Shown: in pieces, positions 1-51,838 of the stretch
Numbering within the stretch: the first letter of the stretch is position 1
Layout of the letters: every line of letters starts with the position of its first letter
Source of the DNA: Paraspadella gotoi
Taxonomy: Eukaryota; Animalia; Chaetognatha
NCBI GenBank assembly: GCA_051294375.1
Contig: JBJCIZ010000044.1
Location: forward strand, 1 to 59,747
Direction of reading: 5' to 3'
Length of the DNA: 59,747 nt
The notes under the pieces: model-generated
The model's database searches: none
What the model was told of the DNA's origin: nothing
Seen by the model: only the letters and a program-made list of their open reading frames with translations
Program-made: the position numbers and the translations under genes

Positions 1-388
1 GAGAGAGAGAGAGAGAGACATATAGAAATAAAGGACTAATACTGAGATGTAACAGTTTTGTATATTATAATAACAATAATCGACACACAGAAGAAATTCA
101 TTAAAGCTAATACCGAAATGGTGTACATATTAAGTACTCTAAGTCATAAAAGCCGTTTCATAAGGTTTATAACTGCTTTCTACCAAGCGGCTCTTCAAAT
201 TGAATACCGCATTCTCATTGGTGCATGTGGAAGCAGTCAACCGTTCAGGTACGATCTTGTGGTCTACTCTGTATAAAAGGGTGACAATTTTCGCTCTCGA
301 CATAAAAGAAGAAAAAAGAAGAACCGACGAGACCCGCATAAAAAAAACAAAAAAAAAAAAATTGGAGCAAGTGACTCAAATTATTCTA

Positions 389-620
389 ACGGCAACGGGA
401 GGAAGAGAGAAGATGGCGACAACGGCAACGGGAGGAAGACGATGGCGACATCGGGACGAAAGTAATAAGAAAGAGACTCCGATGGTCGGATCGAGAAGAT
501 GGCGACAACGGCAACGGGAGGAAGACGATGGCGACATCGGGACGAAAGTAATAAGAAGAGACTCCGATGGTCGGATCGAGAAGATGGCGACAACGGCAAC
601 GGGAGGAAGACGATGGCGAA
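389..620. repeat. Tandem repeat, ~85-86 bp unit, ~2.7 copies
   Basis: Unit gatggcgacaacggcaacgggaggaagacgatggcgacatcgggacgaaagtaataagaagagactccgatggtcggatcgagaa starts at ~411, 498 and 583; partial copy from 389. Confidence 0.9.
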
Positions 621-1079
621 AATGGCGGGGTCCAAATTTTTTTCCTCTACAATCCAAATAGCGACCATTAGTGTCATTTGCGCTCTGCAGCGTCGCCGTG
701 ATCAACTTAAATATAAAACTACCAAATTTTTGATTTTCTTAAAAGATCGTCAAACTGGGTAATTTCATTTTTTTATTCGTTAGGTTTAGCTAATTAAGAT
801 AGCATTTGAATAGCTGAGTTATTAACCTGGTAGCGTATAGAAGGCAATAATGGAAAGTAACGCCGATTTTGGATTTAAATTTAACATGTTTATTTCGCGT
901 TAGATATTGTAGATGGTATTATGACATTACAGTTCATATTTCTAGTCATACATCGCACTGTCGAGCAATAATCAATGGGTAACTTGTGTACTAATCCCGT
1001 GTCAGTTTTAAAATTTTTCTTTCGCTTTTTCGCTTCGTCGGTTTGGACGCTGATAAAGTGTACTAAAGTCTATGATAAC

Positions 1080-2071
1080 TTATGAAATAGTCGAGAGATA
1101 GTCAAAATATTCCTTTTTGCTGAAATCTCCGTTCTCGATGGCCACGTAATGTGCATCGGCTTTGGTATCCCAACACCAAAACAACTCGACAGCCTCATCG
1201 AATTTGATGTCTACGAGGCTTAGCGCCGTAAGGGATACTTCGGATGAAGTAAGAAGGTCTCCCGCGACGCCGCTATGCAGGTATTTTTTGGCAAAGGATT
1301 TTAAGTGTTCTTCGTTGAAGTAGAACTGTATCGGAGTTGATGAATCGGACAGAGAATTTGGTACGATGAACCAGGGGTTGGTGTAGTTATCCCTGAAGGT
1401 ATATAAATGTAATAATAATACTATTTGTGGTTTTCACTGATGGTCGTATTAGCTTCATTTACAAATATTAATAACGCGCATTGAAAATTTAATACTTTAA
1501 AAAATTATTACTAATAGTAATTAATCACCTGCGATTGCGTTTTCCGTTGTGGATAACATTGTCGTCCCAAGTCCAGTTCTGACGATTGGTGTTACTTCGC
1601 TTATATACCCGAAGGGTCGCCGCATCTCTCTTCTCTGGCTTTCTACCGATTGGAACTTGAAAGACGTCGACCGGCCACCTTGATGCAAGGATTCGGCGAA
1701 ACTCTTCTTCACCGGGAAGACGGACGTCATAGGTGTCATAGCATTCCGGCCACTCATTGAAACATGGGTCTGATTTCACCGAGCAGCGGTATCTAGTGTA
1801 GTAATGTTATTTAAATAAACGACTTAATAGAAACAAAAAGTATATTAAAAAAAAGTAACACCCTCTACTAATTTTCATCGTCTCACCTTTTCCTTTCGAT
1901 CTCGCTACTGAATGCCGACCGCTGCGCCCTGTATATCTTAAATTGCGACCGCTTTGGGCGGATCCATTTTTGGTAGCCGTCGATGGCAATTACTCGTGCA
2001 TCTAGTTGACTCGTCGTCCTCTCGATTTTCGCCCAAGCACAATAGTACAAACCTCTTTTCAATGTTTTCAT
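1080..2071 (-). CDS. Three-exon orphan protein, 253 aa (exons 2071-1887, 1792-1529, 1392-1080)
   Basis: Donors AG|GTGAGA (1886) and AG|GTGATT (1528), acceptors ctag (1793) and ttcag (1393); both introns phase 2 and join three stop-free frames (MKTLKRG...ERKR/YRCSVKSDPCF...RNRR/DNYTNPWF...YLSTIS*); 762 nt total; AATAAA downstream near 890. No recognisable domain. Confidence 0.75.
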
Positions 2072-2262
2072 TGTAGTTTCTTTAGACCTAAGATGACAAT
2101 TTAAAAATTAGTAATTAAAATTAACAAACTATGTTAAGGTCACCGAATCGTGCTTTATGCTTTAATCTTTGTCCACTCAACTTATAAGTAATGCATATAA
2201 TAATATATATTGGTTGTATCAATTTCGTATCGAAAGAGAAAACTTTCCAGGAAAAAAAAATC

Positions 2263-2612
2263 GGATCAGAGACAAGGGAAGATTTTACAAGTCGTCCTCT
2301 TGACCAATAAGAAAACGATGATACCCTAAGACGTTTTTAATTGGTAAATTGATTCGGTTACCAAATAAGGTAGGATCAGAGACAAGGGAAGATTTTACAA
2401 GTCGTCCTCTTGACCAATAAGAAAACGATGATACCCTAAGACGTTTTTAATTGGTAAATTGATTCGGTTACCAAATAAGGTAGGATCGGATGCAAGGGAA
2501 GATTTTACAAGTCGTCCTCTTGACCAATAAGAAAATGATGACACCCTAAGACGTTTTTAATTGGTAAATTGATTCGGTTACCAAACCAAATAAGGTAGGA
2601 TCGGATGCAAGG
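2263..2612. promoter_or_regulatory. 110-bp tandem repeat (3 copies + partial) with opposed CCAAT boxes in a divergent intergenic promoter
   Basis: Units start at 2263, 2373, 2483, partial 2598; each has gaCCAATaag and ttaATTGGta; further ATTGG ~2209 and CCAAT 2631; TATA-like cttataag 2181 and tttataa ~2664/2684 face the flanking genes. Confidence 0.7.
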
Positions 2613-2721
2613 ATATCAGAAAAAAAATAGCCAATTAGAGTCCTCTCATGAAGTCAAGGATCCTTTATAAGTCGAGATTTTTTTTTATAAATCACTTTCT
2701 TGCCTTTCGACACTGCTCATC

Positions 2722-3315
2722 ATGTTTACTTTTTTGAAGATCGCAATTTCATTCTCAATTCTCGGGACTGTTATCTCGAAATTTCCCGACATCGACGATC
2801 TGGACGAGGCATTTTCTGAATATGAAATGTCCGTCTATGATCAATCGATGCATCGACATCCAGAAGTCACAGTTTCAACTGATCGCGAGGCTTACCGACC
2901 GAAGATGATCGAACCGAAGGGTTTGGCGTCTGATGTTGATCAGCCGAGTGATTTGGTTGTCGCGGATCAGAAGGCCGATTCTCGGTCCGACGATCCCGCA
3001 AAGACCGTGAATTCGGATGTGGAACGGGAAATGAAAGCGGCACGAACGAGAATGGAAGTAATTGGCATGACGACGCATCAAGTGCTCGAAATTTTGGCAG
3101 CGGTGTTGGCGCCGACAGGGTTCGTGGCCTTCCTGATCGGGATAGGGGTAAGATGTTACCGCATGCGCCGCCAGGGGTTCTCGTTTTACGAGACCCTCCT
3201 TGTGGCGTTTTACCTCTTCGTCTCCCGCTTCTGTCCTGACCAAGCCACGTTTGGAGATCCTAGAGAGTTGGTTCGTCAACGTCCAGTCGTGGCGATCCCT
3301 CTCTCAGCGCCTTGA
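2722..3315 (+). CDS. Intronless 197-aa predicted membrane protein (signal peptide, acidic ectodomain, TM helix, basic stop-transfer, second hydrophobic segment)
   Basis: N-terminal MFTFLKIAISFSILGTVIS; TM ILAAVLAPTGFVAFLIGIGV followed by RCYRMRRQ; second hydrophobic stretch FSFYETLLVAFYLFV; GC-rich coding composition against AT-rich flanks. Confidence 0.8.
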   Translation: MFTFLKIAISFSILGTVISKFPDIDDLDEAFSEYEMSVYDQSMHRHPEVTVSTDREAYRPKMIEPKGLASDVDQPSDLVVADQKADSRSDDPAKTVNSDVEREMKAARTRMEVIGMTTHQVLEILAAVLAPTGFVAFLIGIGVRCYRMRRQGFSFYETLLVAFYLFVSRFCPDQATFGDPRELVRQRPVVAIPLSAP

Positions 3316-3336
3316 GGTCTCCAAAACTTAACTTAC

Positions 3337-3377
3337 CCCAAAGGCCCTTTTCAGGGCCGCCATTATTTAAAAGAATG
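3337..3377 (+). terminator. Replication-dependent histone mRNA 3' stem-loop with histone downstream element-like sequence
   Basis: CCCAAA-GGCCCT-TTTC-AGGGCC-GCCA (stem-loop 3343-3358) fits the metazoan consensus CCAAAGGYYYTTTTYARRRCCACCA except for the first 3' flank base; purine-rich AAAAGAATG at 3369-3377; 27 nt after the stop of ORF 2722-3315. Confidence 0.85.
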
Positions 3378-3574
3378 TCAGAAATAATAATATAAATGTT
3401 TATTGCTCTCACTGAAATGGCTATTACTTTATTTGAATACGGAAAGAAAAGTAAAATAAGGAAACTAAATTTTGAAAGAATGCCAAAAATAATATTATAA
3501 ACGTTTATTCTTTTTACGAAAATAGTTACTTATTTTATGCGAGTAAAGATAATATAAAACTAAATTTTGTCCAT

Positions 3575-4047
3575 TTATGGAGTTTTAGTACTGTTCTTGA
3601 CCAGTACTTCCAATGCACGAATTTGTTCTTCGAGTAGCTTCGTGTATTTGAAGACATCGACGACTTGGCCCCTGCAGGAAAGGAAACGATTTTATTAGGT
3701 ATTAGGAATATGTAAATATTCATTTCCATCATAACTTGCCTAATTTTTTGCTCGACCCTTCTTGCCCCTCTTCTTGTATTCTCACGATTAGTCAGAATAC
3801 CGACCTCGTACATTATGTTGTACTCTTTTATCCCAGGTTTTTCGGCGTTTCGATCATCTTTGCTAGAGGACAAAGAGAAATATGATTTATATTAGTTAAT
3901 AAGAGAAAATCTCAGTCAATTAATTTTAAATTTTAATCTGGGTAAATGAAAAACATACAGTTCTTTGATAAACTTTCGATAGTCTTGTTTTTGGACCAAT
4001 TCCGCCCTTGCCTGGAGCCATGGCATCTCCATAAAGTTGATATTCAT
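3575..4047 (-). CDS. Three-exon 102-aa basic/coiled-coil orphan (exons 4047-3959, 3862-3740, 3671-3575; second intron GC-AG)
   Basis: Donor CT|GTATGT (3958) to ctctag acceptor (3863) is in frame; AG|GCAAGT (3739) to cctttcctgcag (3672) gives ...VEQKIRGQVVDVFKYTKLLEEQIRALEVLVKNSTKTP*; AATAAA downstream near 3505. Confidence 0.6.
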
Positions 4048-4319
4048 TTTCTTCTTTTTTTTTCAACAGGACTGTTAAAGAGGTAAGGTAAGGTAAGTTA
4101 TTAAAATTTCATATTAACTAAACGGTTTTTGCCCGAGAAGGTTTTTTTTTTCTTTTTTTTTTCTTTCTTCTTTAAAAATATTTTTATTATGGGATTTTTT
4201 TCTTTTGTTTTTTTTGTAGAAAGAAAAATACACATAAATCGAAAAATTTAAAAAAAAAAACAGACGATGATGACAACTCAAAAAAGTAAAGAAAAAAATT
4301 GAGAATAAAGAGAAGGCGC

Positions 4320-4552
4320 CGCCGACCGTTGGGACGGCTTCCCGTTTCAAAACAGGACTCCCTCCCTTAAAAATTTCCAACAATCAGGAGCCAAGGTCTC
4401 GATTTCCCTTTCAAGAGAGGACCCCCTCCCTTAAAAATCTCCACCAATCGCGAGTCAAAGTCCTGATGCCACAACGAGAAATTTTTAACCAATCGGAGAT
4501 GAGGATAAATTTAATTGTCTGTTAAAGCACGTGGGCAGGTGCATATAAATCA
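4320..4552. promoter_or_regulatory. Second divergent promoter region with CCAAT boxes, duplicated block, E-box and TATA
   Basis: Imperfect duplication ccctcccttaaaaat(t/c)tcca(a/c)caatc at ~4359 and ~4424; CCAAT at 4444 and 4489; CACGTG at 4528; tataaat at ~4545; lies between the divergent genes at 4047(-) and 5095(+). Confidence 0.5.
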
Positions 4553-5094
4553 AAATTCACAAACTATTATTAAGTTTTAAATACTTTTGTTTTTTGGGCA
4601 ATTTGTCTCGTATCTTTATTTAGTTTGAGTTTTTCATAATTTGTGTATTAGGTCACAAAAAAAAAAGTGTCCACAATAGATGTAACCTGCAATCTCGTTA
4701 TGGGGGCTTTTAGTTATTTTATTTATTATTTTATTCAATATTATTTTTTTTTCGCCTCGTTTCCTTCTCTGTGACAATATTTAAGTGTTATTTTTCACTT
4801 TTTTTTATGTTTCAATGTTCCTCTCACTATTAATCATTTTTTTCACAATTTAGGTGTTGAAGTGTTTAAAGTTACCAAAAGGGTATCATTAATAAAAAAT
4901 TTTAACCCTTTTCGTGGGGCGCTGATAAATCTTTTTTTCTAGAGTCTGTTCAAGTTTTGAATCCTCATTCTCTCTAGTAAAACCGTTTTATTTTCTTCGT
5001 CTCTTTTATTTAATTTTTTTTTCAGCGCGTTTCTGTTGCGGTTTTATTTTAAATATTAACATTGATTAGAAAATTTTAGTTTTATTTTTATAAG

Positions 5095-7857
5095 ATGGCG
5101 GACGAATTAGGAAATTCCGACTCGGTCCAAGTGATAGAGATCGACGTGATATACAACACCGTCGCCCANNNNNNNNNNGGTCACAAAAAAAAATGTGTAA
5201 ATGTAAATGTGCAAAGACGCATAGGTGAGTTGGAGGAACAATTTGCTCTTTTTGCCGCCTCCACTTTCAACATCACCTTTACAGACGACGATAAAACTTC
5301 GTTACAAAATGCGCGATCGAAAATCGCTAATAAAATTGACGCGCATAACAAATATGTCGAAACCTACCGCGCGTTCGTCGCAGACCAAAATTTTTTAAAA
5401 AAATTGCGCGCGATTCTCGATAAAGACGACGAAACTTCGACGTCTTCGACCCTAGGAGAGGAGCCGCGCGAGTTAGGTTTTAACAATTTTGACTCTAATG
5501 ACATTCCGCACTACATTGACGACGGCAATGCTTGTACCGTTACAGACAACGCTACTTGTAACGGTACCAATAACAATGACATTGTAGACGCGTCCTCCTC
5601 TGACAGCAGAAAGGAGCCAATCACTGTTTTCGACGACGTCGATTACCGAGTAAACAACGACGATCTGGCGGTGTCGTCTTTCGCCGAAATCGAAACTAAT
5701 ACCTTGTATAACGTCGACCAACGTGAAAAAGAACCAAATCCGTTTTTCGACGTGTCACCAATATATCCAACGTCGCCAACATTCTGTGACATACTAATAT
5801 CTGGTGATTTGTACGGCAAAGACGAGGCTAAATTCGTTTCGCCGCCAGTCAAATCTCAAACGGAAAACGATGATGACGCTCCCGCTGATGATTTTGGGGA
5901 TGTTTTATACCCATCAGACATTTTGACGACATTCGTGGACAACCCGGTCCAGGTTATCTCCAAACCTCATAATTTTGTTCACGACATCGAAGCATCGACG
6001 TCGTTGAATACCTTCCGAGGCATCTCGGCCATCAACGATTGTCAAAATGCAGAAATGGGATCAACGCCCCAGATGACGTCATCTCCTATTGAGACAACAA
6101 ATGAGATACCTCCTATTCCTTCCACCCCAACCCCCAACCCTGACGTATCACCAACACGATTGGAAAAGGGAAAGGGGTTGGGTAAGTCATCGTTGCTCCC
6201 TATGACGCCCCCTCGTGGCAAGCCCAAATCCTTCGCGGCCCTAAATACCCCTCAACGGACCCCTAGAAATAAAAGACGTTTTGTGAAAATTCTTCCGGCG
6301 GTTCCCAAGTCGGAAGAAAACCCAACAAAAAAGGCCAAGAAATTGACATCAAAAGTTTTGCAAATTGCCGACCCTCTTCAAAACGAAGAGTCGGCTTTGT
6401 TGTTTTTAAATCAATGCAACGACGATGGCAATTTAGTAAGACAGAGTACGAGTCAAAACTCGAGCCTCGTCGACTTCATGGCAGACAACAATGACGGAGG
6501 TGATATTCTCCAAGATGCACTCGACATGGCTCACCTAACGGGTCAGTGAGTAAGTACTGTTATATTTCTGTTTATTTTTTTTTACTATTATGTCTTTATC
6601 GTAAAGAGAAAAAATGCAATAGTTGTCAAGTTTTTCTATTTATTTGGGTGGGTTGTTCTGTTTTAAACGAGTTTTAATGGGCTCAGGTTTAAAAAAATAT
6701 TACCTTGTTCTTTTTATATATACTTTTTTATAAATAGCTGTAATATATGTTATTAAACAATCAAATGAAAAGAATTTAGTTTATGTCGCCCCTAAAAGTC
6801 AAAAATGAATACAAATTTAAAAAAAGTTTAAACTTTTTCCTTTCTTCGTTCATATGCAAATGAGACCGAAATCGAGGCCAAACAAAAAGCTCTTGTTTAT
6901 TCTATAAGTTGAGACTGACTTTTCCCTTTCACAGAATCGCAACTTCAAGCGGATGACGATATCCCCGCCACCCCCAAAGACGTCTCCGCGGTTGTCCCCC
7001 GACCAACCATATCATTTAGATTAGCATCGACGGGGATGACTAAGAATGTCACCACTAAGTTATACAATACGTTTGCAAACTGGGTATCCATTTTTAACGT
7101 ATTTAATCGGTTAGGCGATTCCGCTCTACTTAAAAGGATATGCCTTTTATGTTTAAAAATTACATCGAGGGGAAAGGCCAATAATTTAAAAACTCATTTG
7201 GCAACAACTTGCAAAGTTGCGAGGTGTTTAATTCCACCATTGCCTAGCGAACAAGACGACCCCGATCTACTTTTAGATTATATTTGGGTGGCTTTTTGCA
7301 ATCTGAATGGTTGCCAGCGCATCGTCATCGTTGACGAGAGTGATATTCAGGACAATGCTCTGAAAAATCACTTCGTGAAAAATCACCCGAAGATAACCTT
7401 TGCCAAGCGCCACAAAAATGACATGACATGGTGCAAAGTCCGTGAAGCCGGCGTAAATCTCTATCTGTGTCCATTCTGTGATAAACAGATTCCAACTGTT
7501 ACAGAATGCAGGGCGGAAATGGTACTTCACTGTATGAAGAATCATAGCGACCAATATGTTGTTTGTGTGGTATGTTCGCGTCCGAAATTATTGGCCAATC
7601 TCCGGGGTCATTGTGTAAGACATCTTTGCAATGATGACTTGGTTGGGATGGGTAACACACGTTTGACTTGTGCATCGTGTGATTTTGTCCTTGACACCAT
7701 CGGAAAAATAGACACGCATATTCCTAAATGCAATCCAGTTCGTGGCCATCACACTAATTTAGGCTTTAAAACTTATTTTAAAGGATATTGCTCCGAAATA
7801 GCCAAGACTCAAATTTTCTGTCGCGGGGCTTCTCTACCACACTATGACTCACCATAG
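5095..7857 (+). CDS. ~789-aa putative transcription regulator: coiled coil, acidic disordered region, NLS, BED-like finger and three C2H2/C2HC-like fingers (exons 5095-6541, 6935-7857)
   Basis: Phase-1 donor G|GTCAGT (6542) and acceptor ctgac-tttccctttcacag (6934) join ORFs 5095-6549 and 7036-7857 in frame; W..F...CLLCLKITSRGKANNLKTHLATTC is BED-like; CPFC..H...NH, CVVC..HCVRH, CASC..HIPKC. A 10-N gap at 5169-5178 makes the N-terminus uncertain. Confidence 0.7.
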
Positions 7858-8624
7858 GTGGCTATTTCGGCTTTAAAAATAAATTAATTGTTTTAAAAAA
7901 TTTTTTCTATTGCCCCTCTAACGTTAAATTTGTCGTCGATCTTTCTTAGCTCATTGCAATTAAAGCCTACAGTGTGTACCAATTGGTGTATTATTTTACA
8001 ACATTAATTTAATGTTTATTACCATGGTGGTAACGTTAAGTTTTCTCGTTAATGTTTTTTTCTTTAATTTTATAGATTAAGGTTATTGTTTGTTATTAAA
8101 CAAATAAAGTAGTCTTCTCTAACAAAGTCATATTGTTTTGTTGAATTATAATTTTTTTTTTTTTTTTTTTGTGTTCGCTCATTAAAGTCTTTATTTTAAT
8201 CATCGCCCTGCTTTCAATAATTTCCAAAACGTTTGTTACATTTTTATTTCTGACTGTTATGTTTGTTTATTTGTTTTGTATGCATTTGTTCCCTTACCGT
8301 TTATTAGTATTAATGATTTAGATATAAAATAATCGAATTTAAATAAAATAGTCTGGTTTTCATAAATATTTTTTTTTAGCAACAAAGACAGGAAGAATTT
8401 TAAGAAAAAAAATGTAGACACCAGATTTAAATAATTGCAAGTGGCATCAATAAATAATATTTCTGTTTTAATGGTCAAATTTATAATATGACATACCAAA
8501 TTATTCGCATTTTTACTACATAAAATTTAATTTAGATTTTTTGATATTTCTTTTAGTTTTGGTTGATTTGGAAATTCTACTAAAACTTTAAAGTATTAAT
8601 TCATCGGGGGGCGCTGCAATAGAA

Positions 8625-11092
8625 ATGTCTGATTCTAAACTCCAATGCGTTTTGAACATTCGCGAGTGTGATACAACATATTTTAAAAAAGTCTATAAAA
8701 CCACTCTCGAATTAAAGGAAATCTATAAGGCACTCTGTACTAATAAATCGGCTTTGGTTGTTCTTCACACAAAAAAAGGCAGAGAAAGCGTTTGTAGTTG
8801 TGTTCACGTACTATTTAACTGCATTCAAATGAAAAAAAAATGCACTGTGTTAGCTGAACTGTTCGCGAAAGCTTGTTTAGTTTTTCCAAAATTTGGCGAA
8901 AATTCTGAGTTTGAAAACTACTTTAAAGAGAACTGTATTGCCTTTCCAGTGGAAATTTTCCTCGTCATGGCTGATTCCTTCTTAAATTGTGAAAATCTCG
9001 ATTATAGGTGGAATAGAAGCTACATGCAACACGAAAAAGTCATCCCCATGTTGCCATCTTTAGATTTGATTCACGCTGGTCTGAGCTCTCAGCAATTCCA
9101 TCGGGTCAACTCTCCTTCAAGCTGGAGCTCGTGTCTCTCTCCCATGACCACCTTTAAAACGATAAATTTCAGAGGTCTTAAGCGTTTAACGACCGATCTC
9201 GATGGTCCCAGCGACTCTTCGGAGCCAGAGAGCAAAAAGGCAAAACCTTCTGATTCTAGCTTGGCGAAGCTGGAAGAAATCGCTAATGGCGACAAATCGG
9301 CGTCCAAAAAAATGAGATCATATAGTGCCCTGAAAAGTCTAATCGAACAAAAGGGAATCAAAGACTTTCAACAACTGAAATCTTCTCTGAGTGAACAAGA
9401 GCTGCAGCTCGTGATGTGCACTTGCGAAAATTTTCGATTTGTTGCAGATGAGATTATATATAATCAGAATTTAAAGTACTACGAAACAAGGTTTGAGCTC
9501 ACTTATTTTGAAAAACTCAGTCAAAAGTATGAAGTAGCCCTTCAAACCGCTCTAAGGACTCAGAGACAAAAAATAACCAAATCGTGTCTATTTTTAAGAA
9601 AGTTCCTACTGGCCCAGGGATTTTCAATAAAAAATCTCCTTCTTTTCCTTAATCGATTTTTTGTTAGTCGTCAACTTAATCGAATTGGAGAAGAAAAACC
9701 AGAGGAAAAATGGCTCTCTTCCAATTCATTCCCAGAAGGTTCCCCGAATGGAAAGCGTAACTGTTTATACATAACAGGTTAGTTAACTTTTTTAGTAAGT
9801 TCCATAAGTTTTGCTAATTTTTTAAAAATTATATTAGCTATTCTTTTGTTTATTGATGAATTCGACTCTTCCCGCTTAGACTCTTCCTCTTCCTCTTCAG
9901 ATACACTCTCACTTTCTTCGTCCCTCTGCTCTTCTCACATTTTTCAAAGAAAAAAAAAATTTGATTTTGTAATAGCCAAAGCCGATGAAATTTAAATGCT
10001 AATGTATACAGCGTTAGAATAATCTATCATGACCATATATTATGGTATTAAAATATTTTTTTTGTCAAAAATGCTTTCTTCTGAGGGAACTCGCGCCTAA
10101 TTAAAAATATTATATTACTATATATAGAGCAAACATTTTTTTTTAAATCTTAAAATTTTTTGATGGATTCTGATAGAGCATAAAAAGTTAAACGAGAAAC
10201 ATAATTACTGCTTTTAAAAATTTTTACGTTTTCCAAGTGACAATATAAAAAAACTGATAAAATCATGGAAAGATGATGATGATGATGATTTTTTATGGTT
10301 TTTATTATTTTTGACACACTTATCATAAAAATATTTAAAAAAGAATTATACTTTGTGTAGACAACTTTTTATGAGCTATCTGAATCTGGTCTTAAAATTT
10401 AAAAATTTTTAAAAAAAATTTTTGGCCTTTCCTATTTATAAGTAAATATTAAAAAATTAATTACTAGGGTATAGAGCCATATTAGAAATTTTTTGTCCAT
10501 TGAAAGTATTCTTAAAAATGTCTAAATATTCGTTTGAGCATGTACTCGCTCTAAATTTTTGACTCACCCCATTGAGTGCGGCTACCCCTATTTGTAAAAA
10601 TCAAATTACTTAAAATTGCAGGAAAAAGTTCTACCGGCAAAAGTTTTTTTCTGGATATCATCTGTTCTCCGCTTAAGACTGCCAGCTTAGCGATGACATC
10701 ATCGTTTGCGTACTCACAACTGGCGGCTCAAGGGTGAGGAACCATTTTATATTTGATTGTCAAGGCTAGCAGAATTTTGTGAAAGTAGTGGTATTATCCT
10801 TTGTATCTACAGAGTGGAGGCGATCCGTCAGGACGAGCTGGCACTCAAAAAGACGCGTCTGGACGTAAGCAGTTTAAAACAACTGTTCGGAGGAGAGGCT
10901 CTTTTGGTTGACAAAAAACACTCCTCTTGTACCGAGGTCAAGCGTCTTCCTTTTGTTGCATCTTCTAACCAAACAGTCGCCGAACTCTGCCCCGACAACG
11001 AAATTGACAGAATCGCTTTGGAGTCGAGAACTTATCAGCTGTCCTTTAAAATTCCCTTAATAAATGAAAAACTTGTACACGACGTTGTCTGA
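8625..11092 (+). CDS. Parvovirus NS1/Rep-like protein with SF3 helicase, ~514 aa, three exons (8625-9777, 10622-10733, 10813-11092)
   Basis: Splicing G|GTTAGT...ttgcag|GA creates KRNCLYITGKSSTGKS (Walker A); GG|GTGAGG...ctacag|A leads into AIRQDE (Walker B), KQLFGGEALLVDKKH (B'), PFVASSN (motif C), ALESR (Arg finger); exon sum 1545 nt = 515 codons. Confidence 0.88.
10096..10469. mobile_element. MITE-like foldback insertion in NS1-like intron 1
   Basis: Imperfect ~100-bp inverted arms, e.g. gattctgatagagcataaaaagtt (~10166-10189) versus reverse complement of aactttttatgagctatctgaatc (~10363-10386). Confidence 0.55.
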
Positions 11093-11256
11093 AGGGCTCT
11101 CAAAATTTTCCTTTACATTTCATTTGGTTATTTTAATATGATACGATCATGGTAAAGTGAATTAGTCCATTTTGGTGAAGTTGTTATTTAAAGTAAAAGT
11201 AAAAGAGGAGCTAACGATCAAAATTCTAAGAGTTTTCAACCGGGAGTCAGATTCGG

Positions 11257-11400
11257 AAGAGAGAGAGAGGGAGAGCGACGGAGATATCGAGAGAGAGAGC
11301 GAGAGCAACGGATATCGAGAGAGAGAGGGAGAGCGACGGATATAGAGAGAGAGAGAGAGAGCGACGGAGATAGAACGGAGAAAAAGGAAGAAAGACGGAA
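11257..11400. repeat. GA-rich compound tandem repeat with gagagcgacggagatatc-like units
   Basis: Four imperfect (GA)n-GCGACGGA(GA)TAT units directly downstream of the NS1-like gene. Confidence 0.8.
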
Positions 11401-11419
11401 ATATCCGATGGAACTAAAT

Positions 11420-11821
11420 CACGTGACTCGGAAGCCAGGGACGCGGCGCGGCGGGCGCTGCGGGCACGGCGCTGGATGGTGGAACCAAAGACAGCTGTTG
11501 GGCGCTCGTCAGGTGCGTCGCCAGGCGCGTCAGGCGCGTCGTTGGGCGCGTCAGCTGCCTGGAAACCGAGGTCGCTTGATCAGGGAGGAACCAAGTAAGC
11601 TATAAAAGGAAAGGAGGAAAGGAAAGAGGGTCTTCCCAACTTTTCAATCCACGGAGACAAGCTGCGCTCTGTGGTGCATTTAATGGAATATTGTTGTAAC
11701 TCTGTACTATTTATCTTCAAATAAATATACACTATCTGACTCATTTACTTCAATTTTTCTGACGCTAAGTTATAGCTCAAGCTGTAAGGTGCTTGTAGCA
11801 GCCAAGGCCTAGCACGCTACA
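11420..11821 (+). repeat. LTR-like or promoter-like segment (probably a 5'-truncated solo LTR)
   Basis: GC-rich GGCGCGTC direct repeats, TATAAAA at 11601, AATAAA ~11720, ends ...gctaCA at 11821; no partner LTR or TSD found. Confidence 0.3.
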
Positions 11822-13156
11822 TCAACGTCTTCTCCAAGATCATTTTTGCTTCCGGGTGCAGCACTAAAAACCACCTCCTAAGCACTCCTCATGCAAATCT
11901 TGCCCCACCAGCGCAAGATCCGGACTTAAGGTGACGTAAAAGTTGTCAGAGACTCCCGGAAAAGACCAGACGCTAGCCAAAAGCAGAAGCCGAAGCTTCA
12001 TCGCTCTGGCGCCGCCGACGCCTCAACACAAGAAGCCCATCCTTCTTTTTCTGTCCCCTTCGATAGGCCGCCGCCGGTGAAACCGGACTGGAGTTCTGCC
12101 GAACAGGAGCAGAGTTTGTCTGCTGACCACGATGCGGAGCGCAACTATATTTACAGATGCCGGAACAACGTTCGGACCACCACTCGCAATCGCAAACTCG
12201 CAGGACGCCAGCGGCCAATATTGGGCGCCAGAATACCCGCGGCGACGACGCAAGCGCAGCAGAGAAAAGCCGGGGCTGAACGCCTCGCCGACCTCGGCAC
12301 CGGAACTTGCACCAAAAGACACCTGTTCACTGGTGGAGGCTTGTATCTTGAAGCTTTGAAAAATTTAAAAGTTTGTGCCGTTTTAAACCTTGGAGAAAAC
12401 TCGACAAGGACGGCCTCCCAAACCTGGAAAAAAGGAGGAAAACAAAGAACGAAGCGACAATACCGCGACGTCCGTATTGAAAACCCGTTATGCAAATGAG
12501 GCAAAAAATAATAAAAAAATATTTTTTCTTTTTTCCAACTTAAAAAATTTCCAAAAATCGCGGAATTTTCGAAAATAACAGCCCGAGATGACGTACGATA
12601 AAAACCGAAAACGCGAATAAAATCGCATAAACGATTACGACTGTACGCCAAAATCCCATTTTGACTTACTATAAAATTTGAAATCCGTACATAAAAAATT
12701 AGACAAATGAGAATAATTCGAAAATTTCATTTTTACCGTCAAAATCTGAACAAAAAATTTTGAGTAGGGGTTGCACTTACAAAAATCAATAATAAATAAA
12801 TAAATTAACCATTTTTAAAAACCCTACTTCCAACCACTTAAAATAATAAAATAAATTCTTAAAATAACACACTAACCAAAACAAAACATTTTCTGAAGAA
12901 ATCATTGTCTTAAACAATAAAAATAAATAATCAAAAAATTCAAATCTGAAAAATAATTTAATCAGAATTTCTGGTTTGGTGCAGTCCCTATAGGGGAAAA
13001 TCTTGGCCGAACGAAATCAAGCAAATCTGGGAAAACGAATTTTCGTTTTTCAGCCGAGGCCTCTGTAAAAGAATTCCGGTTATGCATAGCAATAAAATGA
13101 AAAATATAACACAAAGAGTAAGTTCTTTGAGGTGAGGTATTCGTATTTATTTTAAC

Positions 13157-16100
13157 TTTCCCCCATCTAAAGTCAAACGGATGATTTTAAAAATCTATCG
13201 CGCTGCTCGTACGAGTCGTTGCTAGGCACCCTTTTAATTAACGCCAGGCCTCCACATGCTTGTCAACTTGGTTTCGTCAACAAGAAGGACGAGTAGGCCG
13301 ACCTCTGGATCCGAAGTGGATAAGACGTCATCTGATGTTAAAGGATGATAATTCTCGGTGTCAAGGCCGAGACGATGGAATCGCTCATGATGCTTCGCCT
13401 CGGAGGACAGCATTGTAGCATTTTTCCCCCCGCAGTCGACGAAGGAGACAACTAACAAAGAGGCGAGATAGATTCTCTGGTACATCTCCGTCGATGTCGA
13501 CGACCGAATAAACATGAGAAAAAATTTCCATTTTGAAACCAAAATATTTTTTTACAATTAGCGAAAGAGACATTTCGCTGTCGATTGAGTATCGACGAGA
13601 GACTCGAGGGATGCTTCTTGCCGCAGATCACGCTGAAGGATAAAAAATCTCTAATTTGCGCTAACGAAATCAGCAATGACGATCCAGCATCCACGAGGCA
13701 ACGGAAAAGATGGGCGGAGAAAACGGGAGAGCATCGACGAGGACGGAGCCACCCGCAACAACTCGGCGATGAAACCCGGATGATCTCTGGTTACCATGGA
13801 GACCAGACGCTCGTTATTGGCCACGTCGACCCCGGCATCCAAAGAAAAATTCAGCCCGCATCATGGAACCAATTCCATATCACCATTTTCCCGTGAAAAA
13901 GAGAGAGAGGCCCAGATTCGCAACATCAGGACGTTTCTCTATTCGTCCACCAAGGATGATCCATGAATTTAGACAATTCGATATTTGAAAAACGAGAAAA
14001 ACGCGATTTTTTTTAACTCGAAATTACTTATTTTTGACGATGAGCGAAAATCGCCATGAAAAAATAACGAATTTAAAACATGAACTTATCTCAAAGGTGA
14101 GACAAATTAGGCGACAACGTGGATAAAAAATTTACTCAAAGACTAAACTTTGACGCGACGTAACATAACGACGCCACAGGCATCTCGGAGGCATCTCAGA
14201 AGAAGAACTGCTCCGGCGTCGTCTCTGTAGGCTCGGTCGCGATCCAAAGAAAACATCTCGATGGAAGTAAATCACATTGATCCAGTCACCTCGGCCCGTT
14301 TAAACGTATCGTCGACCAAATTCGCTTCACAGCGAAGCCACCCTGCATGTTGAAGACATGCTTCGCTGATGGCGCCGGAAAAAATCGGCGTCGAAAAGCT
14401 GCATCGATACGAAGTCAGGTTGACAGATGAATTTCCGCGGCGCTCGACGACCACTTGGCCGATTGGATCGTCGACGGTCCCGTCATCTTTGTAGAAAGGG
14501 AATCTTACTACCGCGGCCAAATTCGATTCTCGGCATCCACGAGATGAAATAAAAGAGAGAAATCTTTTCTTGCGCCGGTGATGCCTCTTCACCAAACGAG
14601 AGAACGTCAACGGCGAAGGACATCCTCCATATCCAGATGGAACGCATCGTCAACCGAAGAAATCTTCAATTTTTCACCTTTGGCCTAGGAAGTGTAGACT
14701 CAGAGCCGAGAATAAAAATATTTAACGAGACTAAGCTGCATTTTCAATCACTTTGTAAAACAGATATTTTAAAAACGCAATATCTCCCATAACCCAAATA
14801 ATACAAAGCTGAACACTGTCGTAGCTCAGACGACGATCGCGATTGGCGCCGCAGGGTAGAAACGCGCCTCTGCTCGACGGCTAAACAGCAAAGTCACGTA
14901 GCCTTTCACACGGCGCCGGTCCTGACTTGTCCGGCGCGGCGTCAGACTAGATTTTCCTGCTGCTCTTCGATGTCGAATTGCGTGAAGATACTTTTGAAAA
15001 TCCCGCGACCTCAACGGGGCTCAATCCGTCTAATGGAGAAGCGGATGATGATTTTTTCCACAAAAGCAGCGCTCCTTTATCGGGCAGATATCGACACAAT
15101 GACCGCTTCCCAAGCAGTTGAAGCAGCGGGCTTGAGAGATGCAAAGTTTTCGACGATCTGCGGGCCACAGTCGTTGAAACTTTTCGCAGCTATGCAAATA
15201 GTGGCGTCCCTTGCAAAGTGCGTGGACGCCGACTCTGAAGACGGCGTTCCCGTTGATGCAGGAACGGCTGCGGCGGCCACCGAAGCCTTCTTTTTCTTCG
15301 ATGATTTGTCCACCGTCGCGGCGTTGACCCTCGCCGCCATCTTTGCTTTGCTCGTCGCCGCTGGATCTTTCCCATTTTTCGCCGGCGGTCTGAAATCGAG
15401 AACTTCTTGGTTTATGGCTAGAAAAGACAAGAAATCAACAAAGGAGAGATCGTCGTTCCAATCATGATTCTGTCTAAAAATAACCACTTTTTTCGCCCAC
15501 TTATCTGAAAGGTGTGGCATCCGTTTGGAGAGCAGATCCGCCATGACGGCCGCACAGTCGAGGTCTGCAAGTCGGTCCGACTCCTTCGCGAGGTCGTACA
15601 CCTGCTGCAAAGTGATCAGAAGACCATGATGACCTGCTGAGTCCTTTCAATCGAGCTTCAGACCGCCGAGGATCTGTTCAATCATCTCGTCGGCCGTCGT
15701 CCGCTTCATTCCCCACTTTCTCTTGAGAACGCCGAGGGCGTCGCTAAGAGCCGCGGTAGCGTCGTATCGAGATAGAAATTGATCGATGGAACGCTTGGGA
15801 AGACCGTCGAACCAGTGAGGAAGCTCCTTCAACTTCATTGGATCCGTAGCGCCCTCCAACGCGCAGACGCTGACATTGAAATCGCGAAGTTGACGCTCAA
15901 AGTCTAGACGTGACGAAGTCTTGTCGACCTTGATCTTTGGGCGTTGCTGCTGAAGCATTTGGTAGGCAAGCGTTTGAGCTTGAATTTCCAAGAAGCCCAT
16001 AGCCATCGCAGCGGAGCGGACGAAGGCTGCCTCGAACGGCGCCACATCAGAGGATGACGCCGTTTGATGCCTTGAGGGGACAGAGACATCTCTTTCAATA

Positions 16101-18700
16101 GAAGCCGGCGTTTCGGCGATCATCACTGCAGCGGCAGGAACGCCGGCAGGCGGGGTAGGCGTGGAACCGGGGGGAGGATTCACTCCCCTCATTCTCGACA
16201 CCTCACGATGCAATCCTTCATTGAAGAGTTCCCTTATTGCGTCGCGCAAAAACTCCATTGAAACGAACTGCGGATTTGGCGAATCAGCGGCAGGTGGAAC
16301 GACATCGGCTTCCGTTCCAACGCCCGCTGCCCGCCGCCTCCTCGCATCCATGTTCCGGTTCCGGCGGATAACGCTCACGAATCATCGACGAATTGACGCC
16401 GACTTTGTTGAGACGTGATGGCTATTCATGGCAGTGAATCGTCAAATCATTCGACGGAGGTGGAGTGTGAAGACGGTTGACGAACTGTTGGAGAGAGGGC
16501 TCATGACGGGGGGAGGATGACTGAGCCACGACCCACTCGGCCGTATGTGATGTCGTTGAAGGCGTAAGACGTTGAAACAGGTCTCTCTCGACTTTGCCAA
16601 GAACTCGTATTACCGGCCTCTGCAAATCTTCACCTCTTCTCTCAATTCTTTCCATTCTCGTCCTACTTGCGCTTTTGGCGGTAGCGGCGGTACACACGTC
16701 GTACTCCGCCGATTCACGCAACTCTCTCAATCTATCCGGTGCTCCATGAAGAGTGGAAACTGAACAAATATCCAGCGCACTTCCATCGACACCGACGCGA
16801 GACGCTTCATCAATAATCGAGCTACCATTTGATTCTATCTGGTTGGGGACAAGATTAGATTTGATTGAAGACTCTGTCTCTCGTCGATCCAGATATAATG
16901 GCGACGTCGTCCCTGGAGATGCCGCGCGGCCTGCTGCGATGCTGAGCACCGCATCAGGCCCGGCTGACATCTCCTGGGCTAACGCTTCCACATCTTCGTC
17001 GTCAATAGTTGGATGAGTGAAGTTGGTATTTCTCTCTGTGCGCTGATCATCCGTCAACGCCGAAATGGCGTCAAACGGAAAAATGATGGACGTTGCTGAT
17101 TCGACGTCATCTTCTAGAGTCGGTGGAGGGGACGGTAAAGGTCGGGATGGACGCAGCGTAGTCGTCGTCGGGATGGTTTGCAGCTGAAGGGACGGTTGGG
17201 CGTCAAGTCCCGATTCCTTCTGCGTCGTCGTCATCCGTGCTGCAGCAGATACGGAGCGTCCTGTGGATGCTGTGCTTTCAACCAATGAAACACGTGTCGA
17301 CATTGAATTGGCCCACAAATCGAGCTGACGGCAATGCCCAAGGATGTTGCTGAGGCGATTGAGGAACTCCGACAAAGTTCCAACGCCTCGTCATTCCATC
17401 TACCTTTTGTAATCATGGAACGGATAATTTCACAAGTTGCCTTAAGAGTGAATCTATCCGCGTTGGCTTCCGGAATGTTTTCCTCCGTCGGGGCGGTTTT
17501 GGCGCGATCGTATGAAATTGCTTGAGCCTCGATCACCTGGTCGACGGTGAGGTTCCGTAGGAAGACGTCGCATTCCTGAAGGGTCTGACTCGTTGGGAAT
17601 AGAGTCATTTCCGCCGTGAAGAAGAGTTGTTGATATCTCGGATGGCTAAGTTTGGGAGAGGGTATCAGCCGGTCATCTTGAAGTTGTCGATGTCTCTCTC
17701 TTTCGCCGCACTAGTGCGAGCTTAATCTCGTCTTACAAACGAACGGCGAGGTCCACAAAAGACGCCGAAAGGGGAGTTCCTTGAAGGCTTTCGGCACTCG
17801 AGCTTCTCGACGTATTTTGATTGCTGGCGCGCTTATTCTTCCCGTTCCTATTCGTCGCGCGCGATGGCATAAAAAACGGCGTTGAAGTCGAAGGAAGGCT
17901 TCCGAAGTCGGTGGCAGCCAAACGCAAAGACGAAGAAATAAAACAAGTCGAAACCGGACTTCAATCTCACTGCCAGTTTCGAGAAGGAGCGGCGATGCAC
18001 AATCCGTCGACGTGTCCAAAATTACGCGGACGGCGTCGTCGCTAGTCGAGGATCCCTAATCGCAATGAAAGCAGTCCCGAAGGCGCCCGGATCCTTACGT
18101 CCGTCGAAGGCGTTGCAAGGCCTTCGATTGATGGAAACGTCGACTTTTCGACACCTAGAGACGACGCAGGTGGATCTTCTTCCCAAATCCCGCAAATCCG
18201 GAGGATTAGAGAGCCTTCGACGAAGCACTTGAGCAGGTGTTCCGCAAACGAAGACTTCTAATGTTTTGAACTAAGTTCGGAGAAGTGGCGTCTTTGAATT
18301 CTAACTGACTGGACTAATTCTGCGCATTGAAGACCAGATGGAATTGGGTATAAAATGGCGCAGAAAGAGAGACGATGGCGCCGGTCCAGACGCCCTGGAG
18401 ATGCTGACGACAAAGTCTCATAGTACGACGTCGGCTAAGGCCGAAATGATGACTGTCCACTAAGCCCAGGACTTGACGAAATGTCTATGTAAGTCTGATG
18501 TGGAAGTTGTGTAGATGAGTCTTGTTGCGTTGAGCTGTGTTGTGCTTGTCGTGAGTCTTGTTGCGTGAAGTTAGAAGTCTGGGCAAGGAATAACAAAACA
18601 TTTAGTACAAACTCAGCAAATATATATAAGTTTAAAGTGTCTTTCTTACTTGTTTCTGAAGCCAATAATAAACAAAAATAGAGATGCTTCTCTCATAGAA
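13157..18700 (-). mobile_element. Decayed BEL/Pao LTR retrotransposon, pol largely deleted or eroded
   Basis: BEL-type Gag with triple Cys-His boxes, a C-terminal PEVGLLVLLVDETKLTSMWRPGV motif typical of the BEL post-integrase domain, PPT-like GGGGGAAAG near 13157-13165, PBS-like TGGTCTTC near 18336. Outer boundaries approximate. Confidence 0.7.
15030..16378 (-). pseudogene. gag: BEL/Pao gag (disrupted)
   Basis: DFERQLRDFNVSV...KLKELPHWFDG...ALGVLKRKWG; LLSKRMPHLSDKW...SFVDFLSFL; CKGRHYLHSC...RCFNCLGSGHCVDICPIKERCFCGKNHHPLLH at ~15030-15220; interrupted by stops/frameshifts. Confidence 0.8.
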
Positions 18701-26282: not shown

Positions 26283-31511
<5,229 letters not shown>

Positions 31512-39999: not shown

Positions 40000-42900
40000 G
40001 TGAATCAAGAAAAGTCAAACTTGCTGAGTTAAAATAGACAGAAAATCCGACCAATAAGAAGCGGGTATCAGTGATTCTCTGAAATTGAATTGAAACAGAG
40101 AGTGCAGAAGTAGCTAAGATGAAAAACGCTGGTGTGATTAGAAGGATAATAAGGTTGAAGGACTAGAGAGGCATATAATACATATTATGATTTACTATTA
40201 ACGTTCCCGATTTATTTGTTGCTGAATAGGGAAAATGATTACAAATTTTATTATCGTTACAACAGATAAACAACAACTAACACTTCTCCGGGATTAGCTA
40301 ATATGTACACACTGTAATAGTGTGGTTATGATCTTACTGTTTGGTGTTGAGGTGGGAAGGGGGAAAAAAAGGAGGAAAGAGAGGATGGCGAAGAATAAAG
40401 AAAGAAAAAAGAGCGATGGCGCTTTTGTCTTTTCCTTTGGCGTTCACTTTGAGAGGCGGATTTTTTTCTTTTTTTTTTTTTGCGATGGAGAGAAAAAGTT
40501 TTTTTTGTGAAATATTAGTTAAAAGTTAGTTTTTTTTGCGCGAGGAAAATAATAAAAAAATTAGGATGAAAAAAAATTAAGATTAGGAAAGATGGAAGAA
40601 AAAAAAATTAGGGAGAGTTGGGAGAGTTTGCCGGTTAGCCAGTTAGTCGGTAGAGCAGGGAAACTTAATCCTGGGGAAGGTTAAACCTTGGGGAGAGACC
40701 TGATTGGGCGTCACTGGGAAGATGGGTATCTAGCTAAAGGTAGGTACTATCTAGTCTCTCATCAGGGAAAAGAGGTAGGAAGGGTAAGGAATATATTGGT
40801 AATGGGTAAATAGCTACAACAAAGGGAACAAGGGTACATAAATAGGAGTGAAGGGAGAGGGAAAGTTTTCAGACCCCGAGACCGAGAGGAGAAGTTGAGA
40901 GAGTCTGTCCGATCTCCAAGACTCTATCCATGACTCCAGGGATGAAGAGGAGGGGACGACGAGGGGAGGAGGAGGCGTTGAGAGGGGGAAGAGAAGGCCC
41001 GGGGGAGAGAGAGGTTCTGGCGGTAAGGTGAGCCTCTATCTTGGATCTCCATTGACAGGATCAAGCCAGCAACAACAGAACCGGATGTCCAACCAACACC
41101 TCCAGCAGCCCCAAGAAGAGGACGACCACCAGCAGCAACAGGCAAGTCATTTCCTAGGGGGGAAGGTCAGACAAATAATAGAACAAGAGTTGGCTCAGAG
41201 GCCGACTCCACTCATTCCCAACATTTTAACCCTCAGTGGCCCAACATAAGACGTCAACAAGAACCTCCACAGCACCACAACACCACCACGACAACAATCC
41301 ACTCAACAACCAACACGACTCCAACCTCAGAGACAAGCACGTGCAGACATACCATCGTCTGGTTCTGGAAGGACTAGATATATATTGTATTAGATGTTTA
41401 AGATCTATCAGTCATTCGCGATGATCCGTGATGTAGATATCGGTTATCAGACAAGTATCACCAAATCAAGTCTACCAGTTGGTCCACTAGTTACAGATAA
41501 TCACAACTGGACCAACAAGCAAAGTAATCATACACAGCTGGTTAATTATTCACCATATATAACCAAAGTTGCCTAACACAAGCAATCCATCATAACAACT
41601 TTGACCAAACAAATCATTTTTCCTATCTTCCCTACTTCCTTTTTGGTAAAATTATTTTCCCAAACATCTTTTTTTTTTTTTTTTTGAAGAGATATATGTA
41701 AATATTTATTGTAGAAGACAGAGCCCTTTTTAGTGAGGAGATCCCCCAATTAGTTTCTTAACACTTATTGTTTGCCCAAAATAATAGCCCCCAAGGGAAA
41801 ACAAATATGTAAAGTACTTGTGTCCTTAACTAGTAGTACAAGTCACCTACAACTGTTAAATAGGGTCAGTTCGAACCCATAAAGGCACAGGAAACATATG
41901 AGGGGTGGAGAGAGACGACTATACCACCGAGTCTCAGTCACTCGTAAAACCCTTACACTCCACTCTTTCTCCGAGCCGGATCTAATGTCCAGCAAGGACT
42001 TTGCCTAGCTTTGGAAAAGTGACCTTTTGATTGACCGGACACAGTAATATGGGCCCAAGGCGAGCACGTAAGTCAAGTTAGTCGCGGCGATGAATAGTAA
42101 AGATGATCAGGAGAGAGCTCGCTTCACTTCTTTCTACTTCTCTTACATCGTCACAATTCTTCACCTTCTTCTCACTTTATTATTACTATTTTCGTCTTCT
42201 CCAGTACTATCCTTATAAATCGAAAAATTTCAAAATAGGCTTTCTTAATTTTGATTGCAGATTTGAATTCCTCGTCAAAAGTTGATAAAAGAACATATAA
42301 GTCATTTTTGAAAATTCTTTCATTAAGTGGGTTAAAAATTTAAAAAAACTATATTAATATATAAAAAGTAAATTTTCAGCTTAAAAATATAGCTTTTTTT
42401 AATTTTGACCCACTTAATGAAGGAATTTTTCTAAAAGAGTTATATTTCTTTTTATCAACTTTTTATGACGAATCCAACATCTGTAATAAAAATCTTAGAA
42501 AAAAACTAGTTTGAAATTTTAACATTATTGGATTAGTACTAGTATAAAATATGGCCTACTGCGTAAATTGTAAAAATTTATTATAAATTTTTATCTACAT
42601 AAATGTTTATTAGTATAATGTTGTTCGTTCCTCACTTTTAGAATTTTAATCAAAGTTAAATTTTAGGAATTTACTACGCCTTACTTGATACCCTCTGTAT
42701 AGCTACTTCCTATTACCATTACTATTACTATCCATTACTATTACTATTACCTTACTTACCTCTTTTCCTGATGAGAGACTAGTTAGAACCTACCTTAGCT
42801 AGATACCCATCTTCCCAGTGACGCCCAATCAGGCCTCTCCCCAAGGGTTAACCTTCCCCAGGATTACGTTTCCTGCTCGACCGACTAAGCAACTAACCGG

Positions 42901-50555: not shown

Positions 50556-50997
50556 TGAAAACGCTGTCGGATCAGCGACACGACACGGAGAAAAGATTTC
50601 GCCTCAACGCTCATTGGCGGATCAAGCGAAAACTAACGAATCAGAGATCGACAAAAAATAGCACAGACTAAAAGAGTTTACATTTTATGAAAATTGAAAA
50701 CGTTTTTTGATGATTGCTTGTGAAATACTTAATGTCAATTACGATCATTGTATTATTAGATTCTACAAATTGTACCTTTATTCGATATGTATTTTCACAA
50801 TGTTTATTGCATTTATCAATTCATAAACATTCTATTTGTATGCTTTAAAATAGCAAACGGATCCGGTGTAGGGTGAAAATACCAAGTGCTTTCGATCAGG
50901 TCCGATCGCGAATAAATAAACATTGTATTTTTGTCAATTGTCGCTGGTATTATATTTCGATAATAAACTTTACGTCTACATAAAAAGTGCCCTTTAA

Positions 50998-51011
50998 TGG
51001 TGAGCCCGACG
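50998..51011 (+). promoter_or_regulatory. Primer-binding site, tRNA-Trp-like
   Basis: TGGTGAGCCCGACG differs at one base from the canonical tRNA-Trp PBS TGGTGACCCCGACG; same sequence at 26735. Confidence 0.75.
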
Positions 51012-51831: not shown

Positions 51832-51838
51832 GGGAAAC
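51832..51838 (+). promoter_or_regulatory. -1 ribosomal frameshift slippery heptamer G GGA AAC
   Basis: In the gag frame (CCG GGA AAC, ...RPGNA) with pol in the -1 frame starting GGG AAA CGC; downstream structure obscured by an N-gap. Confidence 0.7.

Follow-up and report, generated by a model that had tools for sequence, protein, structure and literature searches.

The window analysed here, that is, the whole stretch of 59,747 nt, is AT-rich eukaryotic DNA with satellites and tandem repeats. It also contains decayed retroelements of the Gypsy type, recognised by a reverse transcriptase (E 5.5e-30) and by integrase matches, and this content points to an invertebrate animal as the likely host. 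On its plus strand, between 8625 and 11092, we found a gene that on its sequence is an NS1/Rep-type superfamily 3 (SF3) helicase, with predicted ATPase and unwinding activity. It is distributed over three predicted exons of 1153, 112 and 280 nt, which add up to 1545 nt in a single frame (514 codons plus the stop). Exon 1 (8625-9777) encodes an N-terminal domain (ca. residues 1-135) without family assignment, a linker of low complexity that includes a basic, NLS-like stretch, a helical region and the first strand of Walker A; no Pfam match to this exon reached the cut-off. Intron 1 (9778-10621, 844 nt, phase 1) cuts the codon of the first Walker A glycine. Exon 2 (10622-10733) carries the remaining part of Walker A, including its lysine, and the segment preceding Walker B, and intron 2 (10734-10812, 79 nt, phase 2), which runs from GT to AG and has a pyrimidine tract, lies directly before Walker B. 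Walker B, B', motif C, the arginine finger and the stop are all found in exon 3 (10813-11092).

On the same strand, 770 nt upstream, there is a predicted two-exon gene of ca. 790 codons (5095-7857; exons 5095-6545 and 6936-7857), whose donor at 6546 and acceptor at 6935 join in frame. Its product would have a coiled N-terminus, a long acidic and proline-rich linker and a Cys/His-rich C-terminus with only sub-threshold zinc-finger matches, and the gene contains a 10-nt N gap. A block of compact orphan ORFs on both strands (1080-4062), apparently spliced (1080-1806 and 3535-4062, both minus) and without any notable Pfam or PHROG match, includes a predicted membrane protein (2671-3315, plus). Also to the left of the helicase are near-perfect tandem repeats of 110 bp (2263-2585, 2.9 copies) and 85 bp (407-619, 2.5 copies) and a 64-bp pair (4339-4466), possibly origin or promoter repeats. 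On the other side, the minus strand of 12700-18400 holds frameshifted ORFs with no Pfam match, which we take, from a gag-type zinc-knuckle pattern, to be a likely decayed Bel/Pao retrotransposon. Two elements of the Gypsy type, both decayed and with LTR-like ends that are related (ca. 26450-31430 and ca. 50720-55550), match protease, reverse transcriptase, RNase H and integrase, and a 198-base poly-A run (27137-27334), possibly an assembly artefact, lies beside a Gypsy-type element. A search of Rfam gave no match.

The split helicase gene

The two GT-AG introns had been proposed, with these coordinates, in an earlier note on this DNA, and the proposal held when we checked their positions and ends, the frame, the GC content, the stops and the rank of the model among its competitors. 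The 384 open codons of exon 1 would arise by chance with a probability of ca. 4e-12 at the same composition. Both introns have stops in all three frames and neither has a length divisible by 3, so that retention of either shifts the frame. GC content is 0.38, 0.46 and 0.46 in the exons vs. 0.26 and 0.34 in the introns. At the donor of intron 1, 8 of 9 positions fit the U1 consensus, a level reached by 0.17% of the GT sites in the window; at the donor of intron 2 only 5 of 9 do, a level that 22% of the GT sites reach. Of 15 positions at each acceptor, 7 are pyrimidines in intron 1 and 11 in intron 2.

In all, 4,471 GT-AG models with either one or two introns were built, and we scored them with helicase profiles. 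The claimed model came first under all four profiles, with 43.9 vs. 42.0 bits under the parvovirus profile (3,702 models scored), 35.9 vs. 35.7 under the densovirus profile (3,721), 26.1 vs. 23.3 under the E1 profile (4,229) and 92.2 vs. 90.0 under a profile made only from the relatives P0002-P0004 described below (4,424). These margins over the runner-up are narrow, and the exact junction bases therefore rest on splice-site quality together with homology. The best one-intron model reached 27.5 bits, vs. the 43.9 of the claimed two-intron model. Contigs of run X1, which we guess to be RNA and which had 9% of words in common, cover 10 of 30 bins, all of them repeats, and none spans the junctions 9777/10622 or 10733/10813, which leaves them neutral on expression. 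We also considered whether a transposon break had been mistaken for intron 1; this was rejected, as the insert described below accounts for only 625 of the 844 nt and the stop after exon 1 lies outside it.

That the product is an SF3 helicase of the parvoviral NS1 type had likewise been suggested before, and the Pfam match, the profile alignment, the tree and the p-AU tests all agree with this. Exon 3 alone already exceeds the cut-off of PF01057 (Parvo_NS1; E 4.5e-6, 26.3 bits, cut-off 20). Helicase profiles were made from 18 vertebrate-parvovirus-type, 21 densovirus-type, 24 E1, 75 CRESS and 51 large T sequences, taken from viral contigs that were picked by motif patterns, with 8 parvovirus/E1 loci checked against Pfam and the remaining labels resting on motifs. 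The X-at-junction protein spans positions 6-133 of the 145-column vertebrate-parvovirus profile with 40.9 bits (27.7 for exon 3 alone), and Walker A, Walker B, B', motif C and the arginine finger all fall within ca. 130 residues of this continuous alignment. The Walker A lysine, the acidic pair of Walker B, the asparagine of motif C and the arginine finger are all present. The same protein scored 33.0 bits with the densovirus profile, 23.1 with E1 and 1.1 with CRESS, and the large T profile (51 sequences) matched no domain in it. Identity to the viral references is at most 26%. AAV Rep40/68 was among the best, non-significant, PDB matches to exon 3, and the family profile found its best PDB matches in entries of NS1 and Rep40 (E 5.5e-7 to 2.5e-6). 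The residues in front of Walker B are polar, which they are not in most parvoviruses; the relative P0002 has this trait as well.

Membership in other SF3 groups was rejected. Papillomavirus E1 has the SF3 core in common with the gene; however, its Pfam family (PF00519) matched below the cut-off, the E1 DNA-binding domain was not found and a joint clade was rejected (p-AU 0.013). The score with the CRESS profile and the lack of a large T domain exclude the CRESS Reps and polyomavirus large T.

Other parts of a parvovirus were sought as well. No profile of an HUH endonuclease matched the N-terminal region, for which two single-sequence fold models had a pLDDT of 35, too poor to read, and a viral fold search with a model of this quality gave nothing at E 0.001. 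By eye we could make out a candidate HUH motif in which a cysteine replaces the first histidine, followed by a tyrosine-bearing helix; the order of strands and helices in the N-terminal 110 residues, with that cysteine, may resemble that of a Rep nuclease. The 149 ORFs of 36 parvovirus and densovirus loci matched only exon 3 within the window; a capsid gene may have been deleted or be very divergent. The window has no second SF3 copy. Of 307 inverted pairs in 4200-13000, the 25 longest were all short and AT-rich, with no terminal hairpin or inverted terminal repeat among them.

Relatives in metagenome assemblies and phylogenetic position

A full HMMER scan with exon 3 over 1.84 billion representatives gave three matches, one of which (P0001) was a false match to CUB repeats and was discarded. 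The other two, P0002 and P0003, have 40 and 38% identity to exon 3, respectively. A search by profile, with 4 matches in 2,940 candidates, brought in P0004 as well as P0005, which is more distant. Identity in the helicase is 38-42% for P0002-P0004. The sources are ENA assemblies for P0002-P0004 and Logan for P0005, with none from NCBI or UniRef, and the longest contigs measure 1.4-3.5 kb. The three nearer relatives belong to clusters with 2, 9 and 10 members, found on 1, 15 and 3 short contigs, a pattern that suits a virus or a repeated element. Scans for further relatives, or for the DNA of these, found none in viral contigs, JGI metagenomes, prokaryote genomes or phages; one JGI metagenome locus was rejected because its match covered no more than 43 residues and lay within an unrelated ORF of bacterial or phage type. 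Word-seeded homologue searches gave 0 of 2,724 candidates for exon 1 and 0 of 180 for exon 3, no full-length relative was found at E 0.001 among the 1.84 billion representatives, and in the ESM Atlas exon 1 had no usable match and exon 3 matched short unnamed clusters only.

Few as they are, these relatives bear on each part of the gene. The last third of exon 1 (residues 269-354) matches P0004 at 26% identity (E 4e-5). Exon 2, with E 1.3e-4 to the relatives-only profile across the six frames of the window, has 49% identity to residues 23-57 of P0002, and the alignment goes on unbroken at intron 2 into exon 3, at 39%. With the X-at-junction protein, the relatives-only profile gave 103.4 bits over residues 268-507, spanning both junctions. 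This score, and the first rank of the claimed model under that profile (by 2.2 bits), are independent support for the three exons being one gene.

The ends of these proteins deserve attention. In P0002, homology begins exactly at the Walker A glycine and is preceded by 22 residues, 19 of which have pyrimidine-led codons vs. 45% elsewhere (p 9e-5, in a grouping made post hoc; 14 of 22 with a stricter residue set, p 0.014); with five prolines, this leader cannot form the expected strand. It suggests that a prokaryotic gene caller read through an intron acceptor. P0003 begins inside Walker A, and P0004 ends three residues after diverging inside motif B', a place where the 71%-identical P0003 continues. 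Judging from protein ends, introns of their own possibly break the relatives, and in P0002 one of these would sit at that very Walker A glycine; the ends might also stem from contig ends, frameshifts or decay. P0004 reads straight through Walker A at the site of intron 1, and P0002 and P0003 both read straight through the site of intron 2. The positions are thus not fixed, and introns may have been gained at this locus. There is good evidence that the window gene and P0002-P0004 form a small undescribed family; the evidence for introns as a trait of that family is suggestive.

The earlier note had called for a phylogeny with NS1, CRESS Rep and E1, and in it the gene sits within the parvovirus NS1 radiation. 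The tree (142 columns, 40 rows, LG+G4) omitted 5 of the 10 large T rows and 5 of the 12 rows each of E1 and CRESS, and its references contain no named hamaparvovirus or bidnavirus. The window gene and P0002-P0004 form a single clade (100/99), with P0005 outside it, and this clade is nested in the parvovirus-type group (99/95), separate from the densovirus and the main vertebrate groups. In a quick tree made earlier, in which the relatives were not included, the gene was on a long branch and SH-aLRT was only 80. Grouping with E1 was rejected by the p-AU test quoted above; a position as sister to the densoviruses or to the Parvovirinae was not (p-AU 0.20 and 0.35). The root region of the tree, where E1 was not recovered as one group, is unreliable.

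Host repeats within and beside the gene

Most of intron 1 is occupied by a palindromic MITE-like insert (9973-10590), a high-copy element of 618 bp with TAG...CTA ends and a 7-bp target duplication (TTTGTAA). Its self-complement score was 139 vs. a maximum of 57 in 200 shuffles. Among 25 x 25 pairs of boundaries searched, 5 passed the filter, and the one with the 7-bp duplication agrees with the ends of the run X1 contigs, which begin at 9973 and end at 10588-10592, with bin depths of 190-6,900. These contigs are confined to 9973-10598 and to the bins from 11048 onward, at depths mostly of hundreds to thousands, and they cover little of the 219 nt of intron 1 that lie beyond the insert. Removal of the insert leaves a 219-nt intron with its splice sites intact. 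The 844-nt size of intron 1 is thus mostly due to a later insertion, and the intron likely had 219 nt before it and is older than the insert. Related sequence occurs elsewhere in the window, in a duplicated palindromic repeat (42223-42672 and 45012-45461; 75% identity to the insert over 83 nt), with the similar AT-rich palindrome at 42388-42468 inside its first copy. The unique part of intron 1 includes a purine/pyrimidine-skewed stretch (9850-9940) that, on the minus strand (9779-9934), reads as a short acidic peptide with no family match.

A host repeat inside intron 1 means that the locus is chromosomal, other high-copy host repeats lie beside the gene, and its scaffold also carries reverse transcriptase and integrase of the Gypsy type, so that the gene is to be regarded as an endogenous element. 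A contaminating viral contig was rejected on the same ground, as host repeats lie inside the gene. Of the long-term nuclear residence with intron gain that the earlier note had put forward, the residence is supported by this repeat. The introns alone do not prove that it was long, since a densovirus in circulation has one in its NS unit and splices it as well.

A second high-copy host repeat (11048-11200) starts within or just past the last codons of exon 3, its start being known to a 90-nt bin; depth is ca. 4,000-4,800 in these bins and zero in the preceding one. Similarity to the relatives stops near 11071, and P0002 and P0003 run ca. 60-75 residues beyond the stop of the gene. Their C-terminal tail was sought in the six frames of the window and not found (best E 0.61). 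The repeat may have clipped the 3' end of the gene, removing a tail of 60-75 residues. An AATAAA at 11059, 30 nt before the stop, and the loose alignment of the last ten residues with a parvoviral helix argue against such clipping. The region 11074-11821 (plus), which starts with TGTA, resembles a solo LTR: it has GA repeats, a stretch rich in GC, and the motifs TATAAA (11601) and AATAAA (11720). No partner LTR was found for it in the window.

Origin of the introns and comparison with known systems

On balance, we consider it probable that the gene is an integrated copy from an undescribed NS1 lineage, of a virus or mobile element, that already carried introns. Host RNA polymerase II would transcribe it and the spliceosome would remove both introns. 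An unspliced transcript meets a stop one codon into intron 1, before the P-loop lysine, so that splicing would gate the production of the ATPase. AAV Rep and NS1 are ring-forming, ATP-driven DNA helicases that serve replication. Given the catalytic residues of Walker A, Walker B and motif C and the arginine finger, the product would be a helicase of this kind, replicating the element. After integration, a host MITE-like element would have entered intron 1, leaving the frame unbroken, and the second repeat possibly took the tail, in which case this copy may no longer act as a replicator. Among the three origins that had been suggested beforehand, an unknown intron-rich lineage is the one we favour, since three relatives show intron-like ends; for domestication there was no positive evidence. 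More tentatively, and as a possibility to which we give less than even weight, the lineage would be an undescribed family of parvovirus-related viruses, or of capsid-less invertebrate elements, with several introns in the ATPase core, a Walker A intron common to members of ca. 40% identity, and gain and loss of introns as in cellular genes.

Other explanations have to be weighed against this one. An old NS1 could have been fixed in the host, gained its introns there and been retained by the cell as an ATPase or an antiviral factor; the relatives would then be host genes of other animals, picked up in metagenomes. The three exons have indeed stayed free of stops and frameshifts although intron 1 took a 618-bp insertion, there is no capsid gene nearby, and there are precedents in the available texts: transcribed helicase-only densovirus elements of sea stars, proposed to be co-opted (PMC7737747), and intact, expressed Rep genes of degu and elephants (PMC9707805). 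However, the relatives come from ENA and Logan assemblies only, with no NCBI or UniRef source, they are only ca. 40% identical, no full-length one appeared at E 0.001 among the 1.84 billion representatives, the flanks are rich in retroelements instead of conserved genes, and the 3' end may be clipped, all of which makes domestication unlikely in our opinion. The gene could also be an ordinary endogenous fossil of an intron-less parvovirus, decaying, with both introns gained at the locus after integration. Each intron is missing from at least one relative, and divergent, long-branch sequences related to parvoviruses are common in invertebrate genomes according to the accessible parts of two surveys (PMC5013282, PMC6880638). 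Against this stand the apparent break of P0002 at the same glycine, the 219 nt outside the insert that are largely absent from the run X1 repeat contigs, and the consideration that two precise in-frame gains with no damage to the coding sequence would be improbable in the absence of selection; we regard such a fossil as quite unlikely.

The integrated, intron-bearing lineage overlaps, and is compatible, with another scenario, in which the helicase would be the replicase of a larger intron-containing DNA element (at least 11 kb) that includes the compact orphan genes to the left, and not of a small unit like a parvovirus. The segment 1-11092 is dense in ORFs with no family match, several apparently spliced, it has the 110-bp and 64-bp direct repeats, and SF3 replicases have been shuffled among groups of animal DNA viruses, as the available part of one study has it (PMC11071296). 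Still, the ORFs scanned there gave no match to polymerase B, integrase, packaging ATPase or capsid, no terminal repeat was found and no such linkage was seen in any relative, so that we hold this larger element to be fairly unlikely. In the accessible part of a paper on nematode Polintons, helicases are not mentioned (PMC10748475).

In small DNA viruses the helicase core stays in one frame, which is what screens for such viruses, and for endogenous elements, rely on. If the reading we prefer is true, a branch of NS1 with introns in Walker A and beside Walker B is a blind spot, of which ORF-based screens see only fragments, and it is also a compact system for asking whether introns were gained in the virus or after settling in the host, with the host insert in intron 1 supplying a relative date. 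If the gene is domesticated instead, it would be a rarity among cellular genes: an SF3 helicase with an ordinary exon-intron structure.

The gene is like the NS1/Rep proteins of the Parvoviridae (AAV Rep68/40, bocavirus-type NS1, densovirus NS1) in the order and spacing of the SF3 motifs and in its position in the tree. It differs from them in having no detectable HUH domain and no capsid, and in the two introns of its core, whereas the helicase cores of our references were contiguous in 39 of 39 cases, a count biased by their having been picked through contiguous motif patterns. Full-text literature, with most subscription journals outside its scope, gave no account of introns within a parvoviral helicase core in the text available. 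The nearest case is the Myzus persicae densovirus, in which, as far as the accessible text describes it, a canonical GU-AG intron in the NS unit has to be spliced out before a protein with both replication functions can be made (PMC11642819). There the intron is placed upstream of the helicase, with the nuclease on its other side, and fuses two viral frames; those of the window gene are both inside the ATPase core.

Divergent chromosomal NS1 genes of invertebrates are known from the parvovirus-like repeats of acorn worm, Hydra and planaria (the acorn worm element, DENSOV_HM and PIVE; PMC3198968) and from the tapeworm EmuDNV (PMC6880638). Going by the descriptions in the available texts, these elements differ from the window gene in consisting of one large ORF each, in many cases accompanied by capsid genes and terminal repeats. 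The word "intron" is absent from the accessible text of the first of these papers and from that of a survey of 463 parvovirus-related sequences across 118 animals (PMC5013282), while a figure legend in the tapeworm study labels some loci as "containing introns" (PMC6880638, in the part available). The supplements of these three papers, which lie beyond that text, may contain members of this branch or intron-bearing loci. Endogenous NS1-type sequences spliced by the host, as predicted here, are also found in the whitefly NS1-HTH (PMC12297876) and the guinea pig enRep-Myo9 (10.1101/572735); in their available descriptions, however, the intron joins viral to host sequence, whereas the three exons of the window gene all belong to one NS1 homology. 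What is new here is a variant of the endogenous parvovirus-type helicase genes, with a core split by two predicted introns and with three unnamed relatives.
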